Assembly: GCA_964465315.1 (NCBI GenBank)
Contig: CAYXIK010000001.1
Location: 172,479-236,478 of the forward strand
Source: an uncultured Gemmatimonadaceae bacterium
GTDB lineage: Bacteria; Gemmatimonadota; Gemmatimonadetes; Gemmatimonadales; GWC2-71-9
Reading direction: 5' to 3'
DNA: 64,000 nucleotides
Position 1 is the stretch's first letter. Every line of letters starts with the position of its first letter. The position numbers and the translations under genes are program-made. Positions 38,257 to 50,491 of this stretch are shown piece after piece. The notes below the pieces were generated by a model. That model saw only the letters and a list, made by a program, of their open reading frames with translations. It was not told the origin of the DNA and made no database searches.

Positions 38257-39077
38257 GTGCCGCCCTGCGACTGGACGGTGTTTCGTTCGCCTATGGAGCC
38301 GTGCAGGCGTTGGCGAATGTCTCGCTGGCGGTCGCTCCGGGAGAGCGCGTCGCACTGCTCGGGCGGAACGGCGCCGGGAAGTCTACCCTGGTGCGACTGG
38401 TCACAGGCCTCGCGCGTCCCGCGGCGGGCACAGTCTGGGTGGGAGACTGGGACACGCGAAACCGGACGCCGGACCAGCTGGCCCGGCGCGTGGGTTCCGT
38501 GTTTCAGCACGCTGACCAGCAGCTCTTCGCCCGCACGCTCGAGGACGACGTCGCGTTGGGCCCCCGAGCGCTGGGCCTGGCGCCGGCGGATGTCGCGGGA
38601 CGCGTCACGCGCGCGCTGGCGGTGCTCGAGCTCGCGACGCATGCGCGCGAGCATCCGTACGATCTGCCACCGGCGCTCCGGAAGCTGGCGGCAGTTGCGG
38701 GCGCGCTGGCACTCGAGCCTGCCGTGCTCGTGCTGGACGAGCCCACTGCGGGACTCGACCGCGTCCTACGCGCGCGCGTCACCCGCGCACTGCTCGAACG
38801 GGCGACCGATGGCGCGGCGCTCCTCGTGATCACGCACGATCTGACGTTCGCGGCGGAACTACTGGACCGCGCGGTGGTGCTCGACCGCGGTCGCCTCGCA
38901 TGCGATGAGTCGCTCGCGAGCTTGCTCGGGGCCGCGGCACGGCTCGACACGCTCGGACTCGTGCCGCCACCCGTGGCCGCGCTGTCGACGGCACTCGACC
39001 TTCCGGGCCGGCCCATCCGTGCGGCGGAAGCTGCGCGAGTGCTGGCGCGCGTTGCAGGGGGTAGGGCAGAGCCCTAG
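38253..39077 (+). CDS. ECF/ABC ATPase with canonical catalytic motifs but degenerate signature
   Basis: TTG 38253 gives a TTGA overlap. 274 aa. Walker A GRNGAGKST, Walker B VLVLDEPT, H-loop VITHDL. The signature position reads LPPAL instead of LSGGQ, and its spacing to Walker B is the same as in the upstream ATPase. Confidence 0.8.
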   Translation: MSAALRLDGVSFAYGAVQALANVSLAVAPGERVALLGRNGAGKSTLVRLVTGLARPAAGTVWVGDWDTRNRTPDQLARRVGSVFQHADQQLFARTLEDDVALGPRALGLAPADVAGRVTRALAVLELATHAREHPYDLPPALRKLAAVAGALALEPAVLVLDEPTAGLDRVLRARVTRALLERATDGAALLVITHDLTFAAELLDRAVVLDRGRLACDESLASLLGAAARLDTLGLVPPPVAALSTALDLPGRPIRAAEAARVLARVAGGRAEP

Positions 39078-39090
39078 ATTGACCCGCCCG

Positions 39091-40923
39091 ATGGCGACGC
39101 TCGAGAATTTTGCCACGCGGTTCGCACGCTGCGTGAGCCTGTTCCGAGATCCGGGCGCGAAGGACGAGCAAAAGGCCGAATTCCGCGCGCTCGCATCCCT
39201 GTTGAAGGACACCTCCGTGTCGGTTCGCGTGGCCGGCGGCCGCATCGAGGTGAACGGCGTGCCGTGCGAAGGGGAGACCCTCACCGGGCTGGTGCAGCGC
39301 CTGGACCTGCACGGCATCGCAGAGATCAGCCTCGCCGCCGATCCGCCCCCCGCGCAGTTATTCGAGCTCATGAAGGGGCTGGCCGAGCAGCCGGGGGGCG
39401 GGGACGATGTGGTCACCCGGCTCGCCGCTGTCGGTGCGAGCGGGATTCGAGTCGTCCCCGCTGCCGCGACCCCCGCGCCCACACCACCGACGTCCCGCGG
39501 TCCCGTTGCCTCGCCGGCTGACTTCGATGCGCGAGAGCCCATCGTCCCGCAGCCCGGCGCTCACATCGACCGGAAGGGGCATCCGCTGGGGACGGAGGGC
39601 ATTTTGCGTGGTGAAGCCTGGCAGGACATCAAGTCTGTGCCGCTCTCCGGCGTGCCGCTCGTGATGCACGACCCACCCCCTCCCTCGGCCGCGGACGCGC
39701 TGCCCGGGACGGCGGCTCCGGCAAAGCCGCCCGAAGACGAATCGGAGCTCTCGCTTTCAGTCGGGCGATCGGGCTCTCCGCCGCCCCCTCCGCCTCCACC
39801 TGCCGCCGCTCCGCCGGCGGGGGCGCCACCGCGACGTGTGTCAGCGGCCGAGCGGCCGCCCGCTTCCGAGCCTCCCGCCAGCCCGCCGGTCTCATCCGCA
39901 CCGACCACCGCACGGCCTCCCCTGCCGGCAGGCGCGGCCGACGTGCTCGCCGAGCTCGAACGGAACCCGACCGCCCCCAACGTGGGCGACCTGCTCGCCG
40001 CGCTCGTACGAAACGCCGAAACGGCCGTCAAGCAATCGCGCTTCGAGCAGGTGCTCGGCGTGATCGCCGGCATCATCCACGTAGAGCAGCGCGTCTCGGA
40101 GACGAGCGGCATGCGACGCCAGTACGCGATCGCGGTGCGCCGCATCTACACGAAGCCCGTGCTCCAAGCGCTGGCACACCTCCTGGCCACGCCCAGGTAC
40201 CGGGCCGACGCCGTGGCGGCGCTGCAGCGGGGCGGGGCCACGGCCGTGGAAGTTCTCATGGACCTGCTCGTGGCGGCCCCCACCGTGAGCGAGCGCCGGG
40301 CGGTGTTCGACGCGCTCAAGCAGATGACCGAGGGCACGGAACAGCTGATCCACATGCTGGACCATCCGGAGTGGTTCGTCGTGCGCAACGTGGCCGAGCT
40401 GCTGGGCGAGCTGGGCATGGATGAGGCGGTCCCCGCCCTCGCGCGACGGCTCGATCACGCAGACGAGCGGGTGCGCAAGGCGGTGGCGATGGCGCTCGCC
40501 AAGATCGGCACCCGCAACGCCGCGGAGCCGCTGCGCCGCGCGCTCCGCGACCGCTCGCTCGAGGTTCGGCTGCAGGTGGCGCTGGGGATCGGCGGGCGCA
40601 AGTCGAGCGCCCTCGCGATGCCGCTCGTAGTTGCGATGGAGGAGGAGAAGGACGAGGCGGTGGTCCGAGAGCTGATCCTCGCGCTCGGGCGCATCGGGAG
40701 TCCGGATGCCGTGCAGGCGCTCATCAAGTGGGCGCAGCCTGCGGGCCGCATCTTCGGTCGCAAGCCCAGTGCGCTGCGCTTGGCTGCGGTGGACGCATTG
40801 CGGCTCGCGGCGACGCCCGCCGCCCTGGGGACGCTCGAGGGGTTGGTGGACGACAGCGACCGCCAGATCCGCGAGGCGGCGAAGAACGCCGTCACGGAGC
40901 TCCGGCGGCCGCCACGTCCCTAA
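39091..40923 (+). CDS. HEAT-repeat protein with long Pro/Ala-rich linker
   Basis: I trimmed ORF 38905..40923 to ATG 39091. 610 aa. N-terminal globular part, a low-complexity region from about 39460 to 39950 (includes SPPPPPPPPAAAPPAGAPP), and C-terminal PBS-lyase/HEAT-like repeats (DERVRKAVAMALAKIGTRNAAEPLRRALRDRSLEVRLQVALGIGG...). Confidence 0.7.
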   Translation: MATLENFATRFARCVSLFRDPGAKDEQKAEFRALASLLKDTSVSVRVAGGRIEVNGVPCEGETLTGLVQRLDLHGIAEISLAADPPPAQLFELMKGLAEQPGGGDDVVTRLAAVGASGIRVVPAAATPAPTPPTSRGPVASPADFDAREPIVPQPGAHIDRKGHPLGTEGILRGEAWQDIKSVPLSGVPLVMHDPPPPSAADALPGTAAPAKPPEDESELSLSVGRSGSPPPPPPPPAAAPPAGAPPRRVSAAERPPASEPPASPPVSSAPTTARPPLPAGAADVLAELERNPTAPNVGDLLAALVRNAETAVKQSRFEQVLGVIAGIIHVEQRVSETSGMRRQYAIAVRRIYTKPVLQALAHLLATPRYRADAVAALQRGGATAVEVLMDLLVAAPTVSERRAVFDALKQMTEGTEQLIHMLDHPEWFVVRNVAELLGELGMDEAVPALARRLDHADERVRKAVAMALAKIGTRNAAEPLRRALRDRSLEVRLQVALGIGGRKSSALAMPLVVAMEEEKDEAVVRELILALGRIGSPDAVQALIKWAQPAGRIFGRKPSALRLAAVDALRLAATPAALGTLEGLVDDSDRQIREAAKNAVTELRRPPRP

Positions 40924-46471: not shown

Positions 46472-47644
46472 TCACGCCCGTGCCGGACGGGCGTGATGCT
46501 TGACGCGTGCCAGGCGGCGGGAAGCCTCGAGCAACATCTCTTCCGTCTTGCAGAAGGCGAACCGGACCAGCCGCCGACCCAGGTCGGGTCGGCTGAAGAA
46601 GCTCGAGCCGGGCACCGGCGCGACGCCGATCTCCTTCGTGAGCCAGAACGAGAACTCGTCGTCCGGCAGGTCTGAGATTGCCGAGCAATCCGCCAGTATG
46701 TAATACGCCCCCTGGGGCCGTGTGCACGCGAATCCGGCGTCCAGCAGGGCCCGGCAGAGCAGGTCACGCCGCGCGCGGTAGTCGCGGGCCAGGCTGTCGT
46801 AGTAATCCCGACCCAGCGTCTCGAGTCCGACCGCGACCGCCTCCTGGAGCGGTGCCGGTGCGCCGACCGTCAGGAAGTCGTGCACCTTCCGGATGGCGTC
46901 GGTCGCGTCCGGCGGAGCGACGATGGTGCCGATGCGCCACCCGGTCACGCTGAACGTCTTCGACGCCCCGCTGATCGTGATCGTCAAGTCACGCATGCCG
47001 GGCAGCGTAGCGATCGGAACGTGCTCCCCTTCGTAGTAGATGTGCTCGTAAATCTCGTCCGTGACGGCGTAGGCTTCGTGGCGCCGGCATAACTCCGCAA
47101 TCCCCTCGAGCTCGCGTCGGGACAGAACCCGCCCGGTCGGGTTGTTGGGCGTGCATACGATGATCGCCCGGGTGCGTGACGAGAAAGCGGCGGTGAGGCG
47201 ATCGAGATCGAGCTCCCCACCCGTGGGGAGCGGCACGTACACGGGCCTGGCGCTGCAGAGAATCGCGTCGGGGCCGTAGTTCTCGTAGAACGGCTCGAAC
47301 ACGATCACTTCATCGCCGGGGTCGACGATGGCGAGGAGTGCCGAGGCCATCGCCTCGGTGGCCCCGCAGGTGACGGTGATCTCGGTCTCGGGATTCACGC
47401 TCATCCCGTACCACTCCGCGTACTTTCGCGAGAGGGCATCTCGCAGCCGCTTCGCGCCCCAGGTGATGGCGTACTGGTTCACGTCGTCGCGGATCGCGCG
47501 GGCCGCCGCTTCCTTCAGGACGACCGGCGCAGGGAAATTGGGGAACCCCTGGGCCAGGTTGATCGCCCCGTGCTCGGCGGCGAGCCGGGTCATTCCCCGG
47601 ATGACCGACTCCGTGAAGGAGTGTGTGCGTCGGGCGGTATGCAT
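46472..47644 (-). CDS. Class I/II PLP-dependent aminotransferase
   Basis: 390 aa. LAQGFPNFP, TCGATEA, and SGASKTFSVTGWRIG (PLP lysine motif). Confidence 0.9.
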   Translation of the reverse strand: MHTARRTHSFTESVIRGMTRLAAEHGAINLAQGFPNFPAPVVLKEAAARAIRDDVNQYAITWGAKRLRDALSRKYAEWYGMSVNPETEITVTCGATEAMASALLAIVDPGDEVIVFEPFYENYGPDAILCSARPVYVPLPTGGELDLDRLTAAFSSRTRAIIVCTPNNPTGRVLSRRELEGIAELCRRHEAYAVTDEIYEHIYYEGEHVPIATLPGMRDLTITISGASKTFSVTGWRIGTIVAPPDATDAIRKVHDFLTVGAPAPLQEAVAVGLETLGRDYYDSLARDYRARRDLLCRALLDAGFACTRPQGAYYILADCSAISDLPDDEFSFWLTKEIGVAPVPGSSFFSRPDLGRRLVRFAFCKTEEMLLEASRRLARVKHHARPARA

Positions 47645-47665
47645 GGAGTCGGAACTTACAAGCGA

Positions 47666-47694
47666 AAGGCCCCGGCCAAAACGGCCGGGGCCTT
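47666..47694 (-). terminator. Intrinsic-terminator-like hairpin after 47723..48274
   Basis: AAGGCCCCGGCC (47666..47677) and GGCCGGGGCCTT (47683..47694) form a perfect 12-bp GC-rich stem with a 5-nt loop. On the minus strand the hairpin is followed by TTTCGCTTGT. Confidence 0.6.
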
Positions 47695-47722
47695 CATATT
47701 CGCGACTAGGTCCTGCCCGCGG

Positions 47723-48274
47723 TCACGGGCTGAGGTTGCCGAACCAAATGAAGCTGGCGCCGCCCCCGTCGATGAGGGTGATCGTCCAGCCGAAGCCGCC
47801 CGCGCACGCGGGCCCGCTCGTCGGGAACGTCTCGTGCCAGCCGGTCTGCGTCACTTCACAGAGCGTGTACGTGCCGGCCGGAAGACCGGTGAACGAATAA
47901 TTGCCCGATGCATCGGTCACCGCCGTTGCGTTCACCGGGCCGGTGAGTTGCAGGCACCAGTTCTGCAGACCAGGCCATGGCGACGCGTCGACGTACACCT
48001 GCCCGTCGATCGACGCGGTCCCACCGGACGGCGCGGAATTGACGCACGTCGAGCCCGTCTGGGGCGGTGGGGGCGGAGGTGGGGGCGGGGGCGGCGGCGG
48101 GGGCGGCGGCGGGTCCTGAGGCACGCACAGCCCTTGATGAGCATGCGCGGTCCCCTGGGCCGACCGATTGCTGGTGCCCTGGCCGTTGTTACAGGAGCTC
48201 TTGCCAGGCAGCTGCGACACGCCAATCGCCAGCGGCGTGGCCAGCAAGGCAAGCAGGACTATGTAGGCACGCAT
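47723..48274 (-). CDS. Secreted Cys-rich protein with 17-residue polyproline spacer and SdrD-B/Cna-B-like C-terminal domain
   Basis: I trimmed ORF 47723..48379 to ATG 48274. Signal peptide MRAYIVLLALLATPLAIG, C-x15-HAHQGLC module, 17 consecutive Pro codons (48062..48112), then VTDASGNYSFTGLPAGTYTLCEVTQTGW. Confidence 0.65.
   Translation of the reverse strand: MRAYIVLLALLATPLAIGVSQLPGKSSCNNGQGTSNRSAQGTAHAHQGLCVPQDPPPPPPPPPPPPPPPPPQTGSTCVNSAPSGGTASIDGQVYVDASPWPGLQNWCLQLTGPVNATAVTDASGNYSFTGLPAGTYTLCEVTQTGWHETFPTSGPACAGGFGWTITLIDGGGASFIWFGNLSP
48062..48112 (-). repeat. Pro17-coding CCN run (G-tract-rich on the plus strand)
   Basis: I read the codons directly. There are seventeen consecutive NGG triplets on the plus strand in the gene's frame. 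The plus strand shows at least six runs of 3-5 G. Confidence 0.9.
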
Positions 48275-48330
48275 CGACACTCCTAGCTCGTTTTGAGGGC
48301 TGAGGAGGGGCGCTGCGGCCTCAGCGTGAC
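48275..48330 (-). promoter_or_regulatory. Conserved 5' leader block with hairpin (copy A)
   Basis: Long identical runs are shared with 49121..49178 (TCCTAGCTCGTT, GGCTGAGGAGGGG, CGCTGC, CCTCAGCG). GCTGAGG (48299..48305) pairs with CCTCAGC (48319..48325). Confidence 0.45.
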
Positions 48331-48552
48331 TTGCCCAGTGCCGGGGGCGGGAGGACACATCGCTCGCGTTCCCACGCATACCACCGGGCGCCCCGAAGAT
48401 CGCAACAACCGGCCCGGAGGGCTGTGCGACTCGTCACTAATGGCGTAAGCGCAGGTGATAACTACAGTTACACTATCAAATCGGCGCGGCGGGGGCGATA
48501 GTTAGCCTGGCGGCCCTTGTTTGCATCACTGTCGTGACAGCATGAACACATC

Positions 48553-48584
48553 GAGGCCCCGGCGGGAGACTGTACCGGGGCCTC
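48553..48584 (-). terminator. Terminator-like hairpin after 48611..49120
   Basis: GAGGCCCCGG (48553..48562) pairs with CCGGGGCCTC (48575..48584), a 10-bp stem with a 12-nt loop, 27 nt downstream of the stop. The U-tract is weak. Confidence 0.45.
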
Positions 48585-48610
48585 GTGTACCTTTCCGGGT
48601 CCAACCTCAC

Positions 48611-49120
48611 TTACAGCGGCGCATTTACGAACGAGACGAAGCCCGATTCCGAGTTGTCGAACACGCTGATCGTCCAACCGATGCCGGACGGGCACGTAGG
48701 CCCGGAGGTCGGGGAAATCTCTTGGAAGCCGGTTTGGACCTCTTCGCAGACCATGTACGTGCCTGCCGGTAGGCCCGGAACCACGTAGCTGCCCGAGGCG
48801 TCGGTGACGGCCTGTGCCGTGACCGGGCCGCTGACGTCGATGCACCAACCTGCTAGACCTGTGAACGCGACGTCGAGCAGCACCGTCCCCGTAATGGACC
48901 CGGTCCCACCTGAGGGCGGGGACTGCACGCAGCCCGTCGGGGGGGGCGGCGGGGGCGGGGGCTGAGGCGCGCAGAGCCCCTTATGGGCGTGTACCTGCCC
49001 TGAATCCGACCGATTCTCATCGCCGTTGCCGTTGTCACAAGAGCTGTTGCCGGGCATCTGGGACATGCCCAAAGCCAGCGGCGACGCGACCAAGGCGAGG
49101 ACAAAAATGAGGGCTCGCAT
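48611..49120 (-). CDS. Secreted Cys-rich protein with 8-residue polyproline spacer (paralogue of 47723..48274)
   Basis: 169 aa. Signal peptide MRALIFVLALVASPLALG, C-x15-HAHKGLC, Pro8 (48938..48961), then VTDASGSYVVPGLPAGTYMVCEEVQTGF. All six Cys are in the same positions as in the paralogue. Confidence 0.65.
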   Translation of the reverse strand: MRALIFVLALVASPLALGMSQMPGNSSCDNGNGDENRSDSGQVHAHKGLCAPQPPPPPPPPTGCVQSPPSGGTGSITGTVLLDVAFTGLAGWCIDVSGPVTAQAVTDASGSYVVPGLPAGTYMVCEEVQTGFQEISPTSGPTCPSGIGWTISVFDNSESGFVSFVNAPL

Positions 49121-49178
49121 GATACCTCCCTCCTAGCTCGTTAAGGCTGAGGAGGGGGCGCTGCACCCTCAGCGAGAC
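49121..49178 (-). promoter_or_regulatory. Conserved 5' leader block with hairpin (copy B)
   Basis: Homologous to 48275..48330. GCTGAGG (49146..49152) pairs with CCTCAGC (49167..49173). The Shine-Dalgarno AGGAGGGAGG lies directly upstream of the ATG. Confidence 0.45.
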
Positions 49179-49296
49179 GTACCAAAAAGGTCGTTCGCAG
49201 CCACGACGGCAGGCTGTGGGGTGCGTCACAAAATAATTGTAAGAGATTGCGATGCTTGTACTTATGAGTTATCGCTTCGATCTCGCCTCGACGGAC

Positions 49297-49317
49297 GCCG
49301 ACGTCTGACCCGTCGGC
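49297..49317 (-). terminator. Weak hairpin after the acyl-CoA dehydrogenase gene
   Basis: GCCGACG (49297..49303) pairs with CGTCGGC (49311..49317) across a 7-nt loop. There is no clear U-tract. Confidence 0.3.
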
Positions 49318-49330
49318 CTGGCCATCTGCC

Positions 49331-50491
49331 TCATCGCAGGAGCTGCTTCGCAATCGTGTTGAGCTGCATGTTGCTCGTGCCCTCGTAGATTGTCCCGATC
49401 TTCGCGTCGCGATAGAACTTCTCGACCGGGTACTCCTTGGTGTAGCCATAACCGCCGAATAGCTCGACGGCGAGCGACGTCACGTGTTCGGCCACCTGGG
49501 AGGCTAACAGTTTCGCCATCGCCGCCTGCATCGTGTAGGGCTCGCCCGCATCCTCGAGCCGCGCGGCGTTGTACACCATGAGGCGCGCCGCTTCGAGCTC
49601 GGTGGCGGCCTGCGCCAGTTGGAACTGCACCGCCTGGAAATCGCCGATCGGCTTCCCGAACTGCTTGCGCTCCTTCACGTACTTGAGGGCGGCCGTCAAC
49701 GCGCCGCGCGCCACCCCAATCATCTGGGCGCCGATCCCGATCCGGCCTGTGTTCAGCGTCTCGATCGCGACCTTATATCCGATGCCCACCTCTCCCACCA
49801 CGTTCGCGGCAGGAACCTCACACCCGTCGAGGATCAGCTCGCACGTGCTCGACGCCCGGATGCCCAGCTTGTCCTCCTTCTTGCCGACCGAAAAGCCCTT
49901 GAATCCACGCTCGACTGCGAAGGCGGTGATGCCCTTGTAGCCTTTGGCGAAATCGGTGTTGGCGAAAATGATGAAGAGTCCGGCTTCGGCGCCGTTCGTG
50001 ATCCACAGCTTGCGGCCCTCGAGGACCCAGGTGTCGCCGTGCCGGGTGGCACGGGTCTGAAGGCCGAACGCGTCCGAACCCGATTCGGGCTCCGACAGCG
50101 CGTATGCGCCCAATAACGAGGTCGCGAGGCGGGGCAGGTAGCGCCGCCGGAGATCGTCGCTCGCCCACTTACGGAGGAGCGTGTTGACCAGCGTGTTCTG
50201 GACGTCCACGAAGATCGCCACCGAGGCGTCCACGGCCGACAGCTCCTCTACCGCGAGCACGGTCATCAGCAGGTTGCCGCCGGCGCCCCCGAGCGACTCC
50301 GGGATCTCGATCCCCATGAGCCCCAGCTCGAAGCACTGCTGGAGCAGGTCGGGATCTACCGTTGACGCTCTTTCCATGCTCGCGACGCGCGGCCTCACCT
50401 GGCGCTCCGCGAAGCCGCGTACCGTGTCGCGGAACAGCTCTTCCTCTTCGGAGAGCTTCGTGAGGGGGACGGTAGCCGTGATCTCGGGCAT
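49331..50491 (-). CDS. Acyl-CoA dehydrogenase (short/branched-chain type)
   Basis: 386 aa. YALSEPESGSDAF, WITNG, and a C-terminal YEGTSNMQLNTIAK, all hallmark ACAD motifs. Confidence 0.9.
   Translation of the reverse strand: MPEITATVPLTKLSEEEELFRDTVRGFAERQVRPRVASMERASTVDPDLLQQCFELGLMGIEIPESLGGAGGNLLMTVLAVEELSAVDASVAIFVDVQNTLVNTLLRKWASDDLRRRYLPRLATSLLGAYALSEPESGSDAFGLQTRATRHGDTWVLEGRKLWITNGAEAGLFIIFANTDFAKGYKGITAFAVERGFKGFSVGKKEDKLGIRASSTCELILDGCEVPAANVVGEVGIGYKVAIETLNTGRIGIGAQMIGVARGALTAALKYVKERKQFGKPIGDFQAVQFQLAQAATELEAARLMVYNAARLEDAGEPYTMQAAMAKLLASQVAEHVTSLAVELFGGYGYTKEYPVEKFYRDAKIGTIYEGTSNMQLNTIAKQLLR

Follow-up and report, generated by a model that had tools for sequence, protein, structure and literature searches.

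Two tandem polyproline-bearing genes of Gemmatimonadales belong to a lineage-specific family of small, putatively exported proteins with a variable linker and a nearly invariant 5′ leader

Two adjacent genes on the minus strand, here called A and B, were analysed in a 64,000-nucleotide stretch of DNA (the window; positions 172,479 to 236,478 of contig CAYXIK010000001.1, assembly GCA_964465315.1) from an uncultured Gemmatimonadaceae bacterium. Their products belong to a lineage-specific family of small, putatively exported proteins of soil Gemmatimonadales and are built from three parts: a head, consisting of a His-bearing loop of ~23 residues closed by two Cys, a stalk, consisting of a low-complexity linker, and a body, a beta-sandwich with four Cys. 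On balance we consider it probable, by a modest degree, that these are Sec-exported, disulfide-stabilized proteins of the envelope or the cell surface which display the small His-bearing loop on a stalk. The linker would then be a spacer without fixed length or chemistry that drifts by in-frame slippage of CCN repeats and that, over longer times, may be replaced by PPPVVN repeats, GGTT repeats or calcium-binding TSP3 repeats. The 17 and 8 prolines of A and B would represent one snapshot of this drift in two old paralogues. The proteins presumably reside in the periplasm or on the cell surface, where the beta-sandwich could serve as a stable or anchoring body and the head would be held at a distance for a ligand, possibly a metal ion. 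Exported CnaB-domain proteins are already known; what is new is the small head, the plastic and sometimes homopolymeric proline linker and the family-specific leader.

The linker is the least constrained segment of these proteins. We could parse 183 distinct relatives, in which the linker was taken to extend from the last head Cys to the first body Cys. Pro-rich linkers of 7–45 residues, with a continuous length distribution and including (PPPVVN)n and (PVVQP)n, are present in 82 of them, while 11 carry (GGTT)n linkers of 33–70 residues. In the remaining 90, the position occupied by polyproline in A and B holds TSP3 repeats (PF02412, DxDxDGxxDxxDxCP...GC), either one repeat (79 proteins, mostly exactly 42 residues) or two (11 proteins, 79–99 residues); the repeat is absent from A and B. 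Unbroken runs of at least 11 prolines occur in seven proteins, the longest comprising 19. It is because polyproline, Gly/Thr repeats and TSP3 units interchange at the same position that a head-on-stalk arrangement suggests itself. According to PMC12045341, which cites Dai et al. 2017, TSP3 repeats connect barrel and OmpA domain in outer-membrane proteins of bacteria, bind calcium and contain an intra-repeat disulfide.

Variation is equally evident at short evolutionary distance. The orthologues of A at loci L012 to L015 (83–90% identity) carry 19 prolines (L014), 15 (L015), or runs interrupted by a single Leu, 7+L+8 (L013) and 4+L+10 (L012), and a more distant A-type gene (L097, 69% identity to A) has 13. 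The sister contig L019 ends 21 nt past the proline tract of its A-type gene, which is thereby truncated; this gene and its B-type neighbour both have 8 prolines. Relatives of the B type have 4, 8, 8 and 10. The differences between A-type tracts are in-frame codon insertions and deletions together with CCN-to-CTN (Pro-to-Leu) changes, and as far as can be read from the alignments such changes are the expected outcome of slippage in an imperfect trinucleotide repeat. Among open reading frames (ORFs) of at least 100 codons, the window contains one other run of 8 or more prolines, an 8-Pro run at positions 39778–39801, and none longer. That run lies on the plus strand within the ORF 38905..40923, which encodes a protein of ~600 aa. 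It falls in the middle of this protein, a region rich in Pro and Ala, and the C-terminal part resembles HEAT-type repeats by eye; 8-Pro runs are therefore not unique to the A/B family in the genome. A literature search combining Gemmatimonadetes and polyproline found nothing relevant.

Both genes are real and both tracts are correctly assembled. The L001 and L002 contigs, which stem from two sequencing runs assembled separately, both carry the gene pair, with no difference in the 51-nt proline tract of A; the B tract is likewise reproduced base for base by independent assemblies, and the exact gene B protein was found in seven contigs. The ratio of nonsynonymous to synonymous substitution rates (dN/dS) is 0.09–0.15 for gene A against four orthologues and 0.21 for gene B against its L019 orthologue, and both genes are thus under purifying selection. 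The matching assemblies and the low dN/dS values rule out an assembly artefact as the source of the tracts, a concern raised at the outset. The start of gene A needs a correction. The mechanical ORF reaches up to an ATG at position 48379 (218 aa), while the ATG at 48274 (183 aa, MRAYIV...) has an AGGAG motif 6 nt upstream. Since all family homologues start with MRA or MRV, the 35-codon N-terminal extension is not conserved in orthologues, and gene callers on the independent L001 and L002 contigs give a 183-aa protein, the true start is almost certainly 48274 and the 218-aa version can be discarded.

Identity between the two proteins is 55% (E 4e-58), with all six Cys positions aligned, which bears out the description of the genes as tandem paralogues with six conserved Cys. 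They are nevertheless not one protein in two lengths. In a neighbour-joining tree of the C-domains, A falls within a large "standard" clade while B and its L019 orthologue form a long separate branch, and the four close relatives of A at L012–L015 lack B; from this long branch and this absence, A and B are, in terms of their sequences, old and diverged paralogues. Closely related C-domains can carry different heads and linkers. Tandem pairs occur on 36 of 95 locus strands, and the common pair elsewhere combines an upstream standard (std) gene having a hypervariable linker with a downstream gene of the ins type, which is very uniform (210–211 aa, type-1 head, one TSP3 repeat, 42-aa linker, an insertion in the beta-sandwich). 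The ins-type paralogue is the second gene at L009, L016, L018, L022, L026 and other loci, and is missing in the lineage of the window.

In the initial annotation, the 17 and 8 uninterrupted prolines, which direct codon reading and the independent assemblies confirm, were taken as a ruler: a polyproline II helix would keep one and the same pair of domains at two set distances. In its strict form, rigid helices would set head-to-body distances of about 25 and 53 Å, and the length difference itself would be under selection. Both runs are indeed unbroken, differ two-fold in length and are reproduced in independent assemblies, and the selection on both genes and the frequency of tandem pairs would be compatible with such a device. 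However, the tracts of A orthologues range from 8 to 19 prolines, the L019 pair has two tracts of equal length as far as the truncated A-type gene allows the comparison, and B is absent from four close relatives. Flexible (GGTT)n or TSP3 linkers take the same position in other members, the usual tandem pair elsewhere is of the std and ins types, and A and B differ far beyond the spacer, in head charge and in 45% of their residues. The ruler is thus very unlikely. As relatives conserve neither its length nor its stiffness, the spacer is best described, on comparative grounds, as an evolvable stalk or linker and not as a pair of fixed rulers.

The family to which A and B belong appears confined to one lineage. 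A query with B returned 97 homologous clusters, all unnamed or "hypothetical", and those with a named source are metagenome-assembled genomes of Gemmatimonadales or Gemmatimonadetes. A single-protein search of species-representative genomes gave 8 loci, all in Gemmatimonadales, and a metagenome scan with the leader motif described below added more than 120 further loci, so that the family comprises at least 180 distinct proteins, all from soil Gemmatimonadales metagenomes. Several database entries among P0083 to P0096 are chimeras in which the family N-terminus is joined to a recurrent artefact peptide (...RSEEHTSELQSR.LVCRLLLEKKK...) and are unfit for family statistics. A search of NCBIfam with A and B yielded noise only. 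The N-module and the whole protein match no described family in Pfam, NCBIfam, profile or PDB searches, in keeping with the initial impression of this domain combination.

The body is the part of the protein that has relatives elsewhere. The C-terminal ~105 residues match SdrD_B, SpaA and CarboxypepD_reg with scores that reach or fall just short of the Pfam thresholds; for SdrD_B (PF17210), A scores 29.7 bits, equal to the gathering threshold, and B scores 19.7 bits, below it, while most relatives have precomputed PF17210 and PF13620 matches. AlphaFold, run with a 45-sequence alignment, predicts an 8-strand sandwich for residues ~65–169 with a per-residue confidence (pLDDT) above 90, and the Foldseek matches of this model (E 2e-6 to 1e-3) comprise the UafA B region, CnaB2, SdrD, B. 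anthracis TIE, CnaB domains of several pilins and, from carboxypeptidase D, its transthyretin-like domain. The proposed CnaB/SdrD-B/carboxypeptidase-regulatory-like nature of the C-domain is thus supported. A search of 1.8 billion representative sequences with the family profile retrieved 31,129 proteins, mostly giant multi-repeat SdrD_B proteins and all of them through the body domain; according to these matches and the predicted fold, the body is thus a generic CnaB/SdrD-B unit. The same whole-protein search was swamped by the SdrD_B giants and was uninformative on the head. An intramolecular isopeptide bond of the CnaB kind is not expected. Although E126 and N166 are nearly invariant, the domain has no conserved Lys and the first strand of A and of B contains none; the body has four conserved Cys instead.

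The head, in contrast to the body, has no relatives in Pfam, NCBIfam or PDB. A head-only PDB search produced chance matches to FXYD peptides only (E ≥ 0.6), and a profile search with the head alone brought up nothing beyond fragments of the A/B family. The loops of A and B are identical at 16 of 25 positions, that of B being more acidic. Both are of type 1, for which 94 distinct loops give the consensus C-x-N-G-...-R-S-x-x-G-x-x-x-A-[HY]-x-G-x-C, while a second type has the form N-x-G-x-G-H-D-x-x-H-C-...-H-P-G-...-N-K-C. Conservation of the head throughout the family is limited to R-S..G...A-[HY]-x-G-x-C. The initial annotation had quoted both loop sequences exactly, with an invariant C-x15-HAH-x-GLC pattern; the HAH motif is invariant in this pair only, and in relatives S, N, Y, K, R or Q can stand in place of its first His. 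Loci L078, L115, L121 and L135 revealed a third head type, which is strongly acidic (e.g. ...DGENDDNEQCEKDDDDC...), and up to three consecutive family genes (three leader hairpins at L078).

The abundance of His in these loops (on average 2.3 in type 1 and 2.8 in type 2) raises the question of metal binding. A Cys-closed loop with two to three His and several Asp/Asn residues might take up Cu, Zn, Ni or Ca, and the proteins could then act as metal buffers or chaperones in the periplasm or outside the cell. Type-2 heads conserve G-H-D-x-x-H-C...H-P-G with three His, and the many relatives with TSP3 repeats have a calcium-binding element in the same chain. Yet the type-1 loop has a single nearly invariant His and the first His of HAH is replaceable, the head-only PDB search revealed no likeness to any solved metal site, and no metal-homeostasis genes are found nearby. 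We therefore regard a role as a metal-binding protein, a reasonable idea in itself, as unlikely.

As to export, the signal peptide initially proposed is matched by a signal-peptide-like N-terminus whose pattern, by sequence reading, is kept across the family: MR, a hydrophobic core of 15–17 residues and G-V-S|Q, with M1, R2, A9, L10, P14 and Q21 invariant or nearly so in the family alignment. Two head Cys and four body Cys are nearly or fully invariant. We infer Sec export and stabilization by disulfides from the conserved N-terminus together with these six Cys. Three ways of attachment were considered and rejected. A lipoprotein is not indicated, as the sequence reads without a lipobox L-[AS]-[GA]-C and the first Cys lies ~7 residues past the VSQ site, preceded in the family by KSS, NSS, GSN or RNK. 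The proteins are not sortase substrates; they contain no LPXTG and end in ...FGNLSP and ...FVNAPL straight after the last strand, and the NCBIfam MSCRAMM and pilin models score only 8–13 bits with A and B. Type IX secretion system cargo can also be set aside, given the lack of a Por_Secre_tail match in NCBIfam or Pfam at E values up to 1.

A retained protein should be weighed as well, one that stays in the periplasm with a linker spanning part of the envelope in the manner of the OmpA hinges or the TonB rod. Pro-rich and TSP3 linkers, which are the main types here, are both known from OmpA-family hinges, disulfides suit the oxidizing periplasm, and the Pfam and NCBIfam searches found no surface-anchoring signal. 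On the other hand, neither end of the protein carries a membrane anchor, a beta-barrel or a peptidoglycan-binding domain, and linkers of 7 to 99 residues are hard to square with a fixed envelope width. A tether of this kind appears unlikely.

A strongly conserved element of the locus lies outside the coding sequences. The regions upstream of A and B are more similar to each other than the proteins are, and in both genes an inverted repeat GCTGAGG-N13/14-CCTCAGC directly precedes the Shine–Dalgarno (SD) sequence. In the window, CTGAGG-N8-16-CCTCAG occurs at these two sites only, with 0.07 expected. A nearly invariant leader was found upstream of every family gene in L005 to L140, and ~164 of the 168 evaluable exact hairpin matches in metagenomes precede a family gene within 140 nt, the other four being located inside unrelated sequence. 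The leader is near-identical even between orthologues that have accumulated 0.6–0.7 synonymous substitutions per site.

Folding predicts two mutually exclusive pairings for the anti-SD sequence of the leader (CCCCUCCUCAGC). In the first, which leaves the SD free, the 3′ arm of the hairpin and the preceding CCCCU (the anti-SD) pair with the 5′ arm GCUGAGG, which resembles the SD and can be called an SD mimic. In the second, the anti-SD pairs with the real SD (AGGAG or AGGGG) and the 5′ arm folds into a small alternative hairpin. The predicted energies are similar: across a set of 64 distinct leaders, the state with a free SD lies at −13.9 ± 1.9 kcal/mol and the sequestered state at −15.7 ± 3.1 kcal/mol. 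In 59 of these 64 the SD helix can pair along its full length. The fold z-score is significant for the B leader (−2.98) and not for the A leader (0.15). RNAalifold called only the SD-proximal hairpin in 45 leaders; in 20 long leaders the helices it proposed were rich in G+C, contained many mismatches and showed hardly any compensatory change, and they establish no upstream structure. The only stem variants, found in L005 and in the L040 group, replace A by G and retain the pairing as G-U, with no true covariation; they represent weak evidence for pairing in RNA over a DNA palindrome. An Rfam scan of positions 47000–50000 at E values up to 1 returned nothing on the gene strand, its only match being SAM-Chlorobi (E 0.8) on the opposite strand. 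The leader looks like a translational switch, in which the anti-SD could sequester the ribosome-binding site of each gene.

Would the proline tract itself take part in such control? Consecutive prolines stall ribosomes and elongation factor P (EF-P) compensates this in part only (PMC5811046), in line with the dependence on EF-P that was initially proposed. In one further reading, an EF-P-dependent pause at the tract would throttle or time synthesis and export jointly with the SD-sequestering leader. The leader does point to heavy translational control, as predicted from its folding. However, many members with the same leader have only 2–5 consecutive prolines, or TSP3 or GGTT linkers, and a long pause must therefore be inessential to the family. 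We consider a translational function of the tract highly improbable.

Further upstream, two more blocks are conserved, GTGAy-N6/7-CACAG and GCGAyc-UU. The former is located 110–165 nt upstream of the start codons, and in L012–L015 it takes the form TGTGATAAATTTCACA, a perfect palindrome of the CRP/FNR type; it could be an operator or part of a promoter. A sigma-70 promoter scan at the A/B locus did not find a promoter. Downstream, a G+C-rich GGCCCCGG...CCGGGGCC hairpin lies 3′ of each gene, the copy after A having a T-rich tail, and the element following B also follows family genes at other loci. A simple terminator scan missed both hairpins, and its two matches do not correspond to them. Since each gene possesses its own leader and its own terminator-like hairpin, A and B are, judging from this arrangement, separate and individually controlled transcription units. 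The coordinates are compiled in Table 1.

Table 1. Elements of the A/B locus, in window coordinates
Feature	Position	Strand	Description	Basis
Terminator-like hairpin after A	47660..47692	minus	resembles an intrinsic terminator; GGCCCCGGCC-GTTTT-GGCCGGGGCC then TTTCGCTT	sequence reading
Gene A	47723..48274	minus	183-aa paralogue of B, 17 Pro	ORF list, translation, gene calls on L001 and L002
C-domain of A	47726..48046	minus	CnaB/SdrD-B-type beta-sandwich, four conserved Cys	Pfam and family alignment
Polyproline tract of A	48062..48112	minus	17 codons, mixed CCG/CCC/CCA/CCT	codon reading
N-module of A	48125..48193	minus	CNNGQGTSNRSAQGTAHAHQGLC, 23-aa loop between two Cys	type-1 consensus
Signal-peptide-like N-terminus of A	48212..48274	minus	MRAYIVLLALLATPLAIGVSQ	read from sequence
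5′ leader of A	48275..48437	minus	GTGAC-N-CACAG 48422-48437; hairpin GCTGAGG-N13-CCTCAGC 48299-48325; SD AGGAG 48280-48284
Terminator-like hairpin after B	48553..48584	minus	G+C-rich; GAGGCCCCGG...CCGGGGCCTC	sequence reading
Gene B	48611..49120	minus	169 aa: signal-peptide-like N-terminus, Cys-loop, 8 Pro, CnaB-like domain	ORF list and translation
C-domain of B	48614..48931	minus	same fold as C-domain of A	AlphaFold and Foldseek
Polyproline tract of B	48938..48961	minus	8 codons	codon reading
N-module of B	48971..49039	minus	CDNGNGDENRSDSGQVHAHKGLC, 23-aa loop between two Cys	type-1 consensus
Signal-peptide-like N-terminus of B	49058..49120	minus	MRALIFVLALVASPLALGMSQ	read from sequence
5′ leader of B	49121..49229	minus	GTGAC-N-CACAG 49214-49229; hairpin 49146-49173; SD AGGAGGGAGG 49125-49134	

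The surroundings are shared by some loci. The window and L009–L012 have the same order of an acyl-CoA dehydrogenase gene, the family gene or genes, an aminotransferase, an OPT transporter and a periplasmic binding protein, while L005 has a different gene context. An operon with the flanking metabolic genes is ruled out by the leader and terminator of each gene and by the L005 context. At L010 and L012, a SusC/SusD-like pair, whose TonB-dependent receptor carries a CarbopepD_reg_2 domain, is inserted upstream of the acyl-CoA dehydrogenase gene, where the window has none.

Several points weigh against the proposal of exported head-on-stalk proteins. The search for an anchoring signal (LPXTG, lipobox, T9SS domain) was negative. 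The head and linker are modelled by AlphaFold with low confidence, and with a pLDDT below 60 the head may be disordered. No functional neighbours are conserved that would suggest a pathway, and the synteny looks positional only. The sample of the family is also biased, many loci having been retrieved by means of the leader motif itself. One could go further than this proposal and see in the family and its leader an undescribed lineage-specific envelope system, with a new class of SD mimic/anti-SD/SD switch and with stalks of 7 to ~100 residues, rigid or flexible, that selection has tuned to set a distance within the envelope or on the surface, tandem copies giving different reaches. We hold so extended an interpretation to be improbable.

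Gemmatimonadales are abundant in soil and have barely been studied experimentally, and the present family of putatively exported proteins is widespread, conserved, unannotated and evidently tightly regulated. The family provides a natural series in which one head and one body are combined with linkers of very different length and stiffness, including proline homopolymers of up to 19 residues, and this series should be useful for exploring the limits that linker physics and EF-P-dependent translation impose on exported proteins. It also offers a new small disulfide-closed module as a candidate ligand or metal binder, and a compact, near-invariant and switch-like leader that is amenable to reporter fusions. 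No long-standing open question has been touched so far.

The closest known counterparts of the body are the B-repeat and CnaB-type domains of MSCRAMM adhesins and pilins in Gram-positive bacteria (SdrD B, UafA B, Cna B, SpaA; PF17210, PF17802, PF13620). They have the same transthyretin-like beta-sandwich, share the pattern TDxxGxYxFxGLPxGxYxVxE...GW...P...FGN with A and B, and are likewise stalk or body modules of exported proteins. A and B differ from them by a single copy of the domain in a protein of 170–180 residues from a diderm phylum, by the absence of LPXTG and of the isopeptide Lys, by the four conserved Cys and by the novel N-terminal loop.

For the linker, a parallel is provided by the hinges of the OmpA family, where the same two chemistries are found between modules: the hinge of E. 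coli OmpA is Pro-rich, like the TonB rod, and TSP3 repeats are present in OmpA-like proteins and in Myxococcus TraB. The TSP3 units of the A/B family carry the paired Cys of the calcium-binding repeat, as those hinges do. Unlike OmpA-family proteins, members of the A/B family have neither a beta-barrel nor an OmpA_C domain, and A and B themselves contain polyproline only. The Pro/Thr- or Gly/Thr-rich linkers of secreted glycoside hydrolases and the TonB rod are fast-changing spacers between conserved modules, extended, of low complexity and quick to change in length and composition, which is also how the family linkers behave. In contrast to those proteins, the family showed neither a catalytic or carbohydrate-binding domain nor the C-terminal domain of TonB, and pure homopolymers of 15–19 prolines are unusual even among glycoside hydrolase linkers and TonB-type rods.

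The leader, finally, can be compared with RNA thermometers (ROSE, fourU) and with the expression platforms of riboswitches, in which pairing between an anti-SD and the SD is likewise possible. It also resembles them in the upstream SD mimic that would compete for the anti-SD, giving two exclusive helices of similar predicted stability. Unlike these known SD-sequestering elements it has no Rfam match, and its proposed structure derives from conservation and two G-U-compatible variants.

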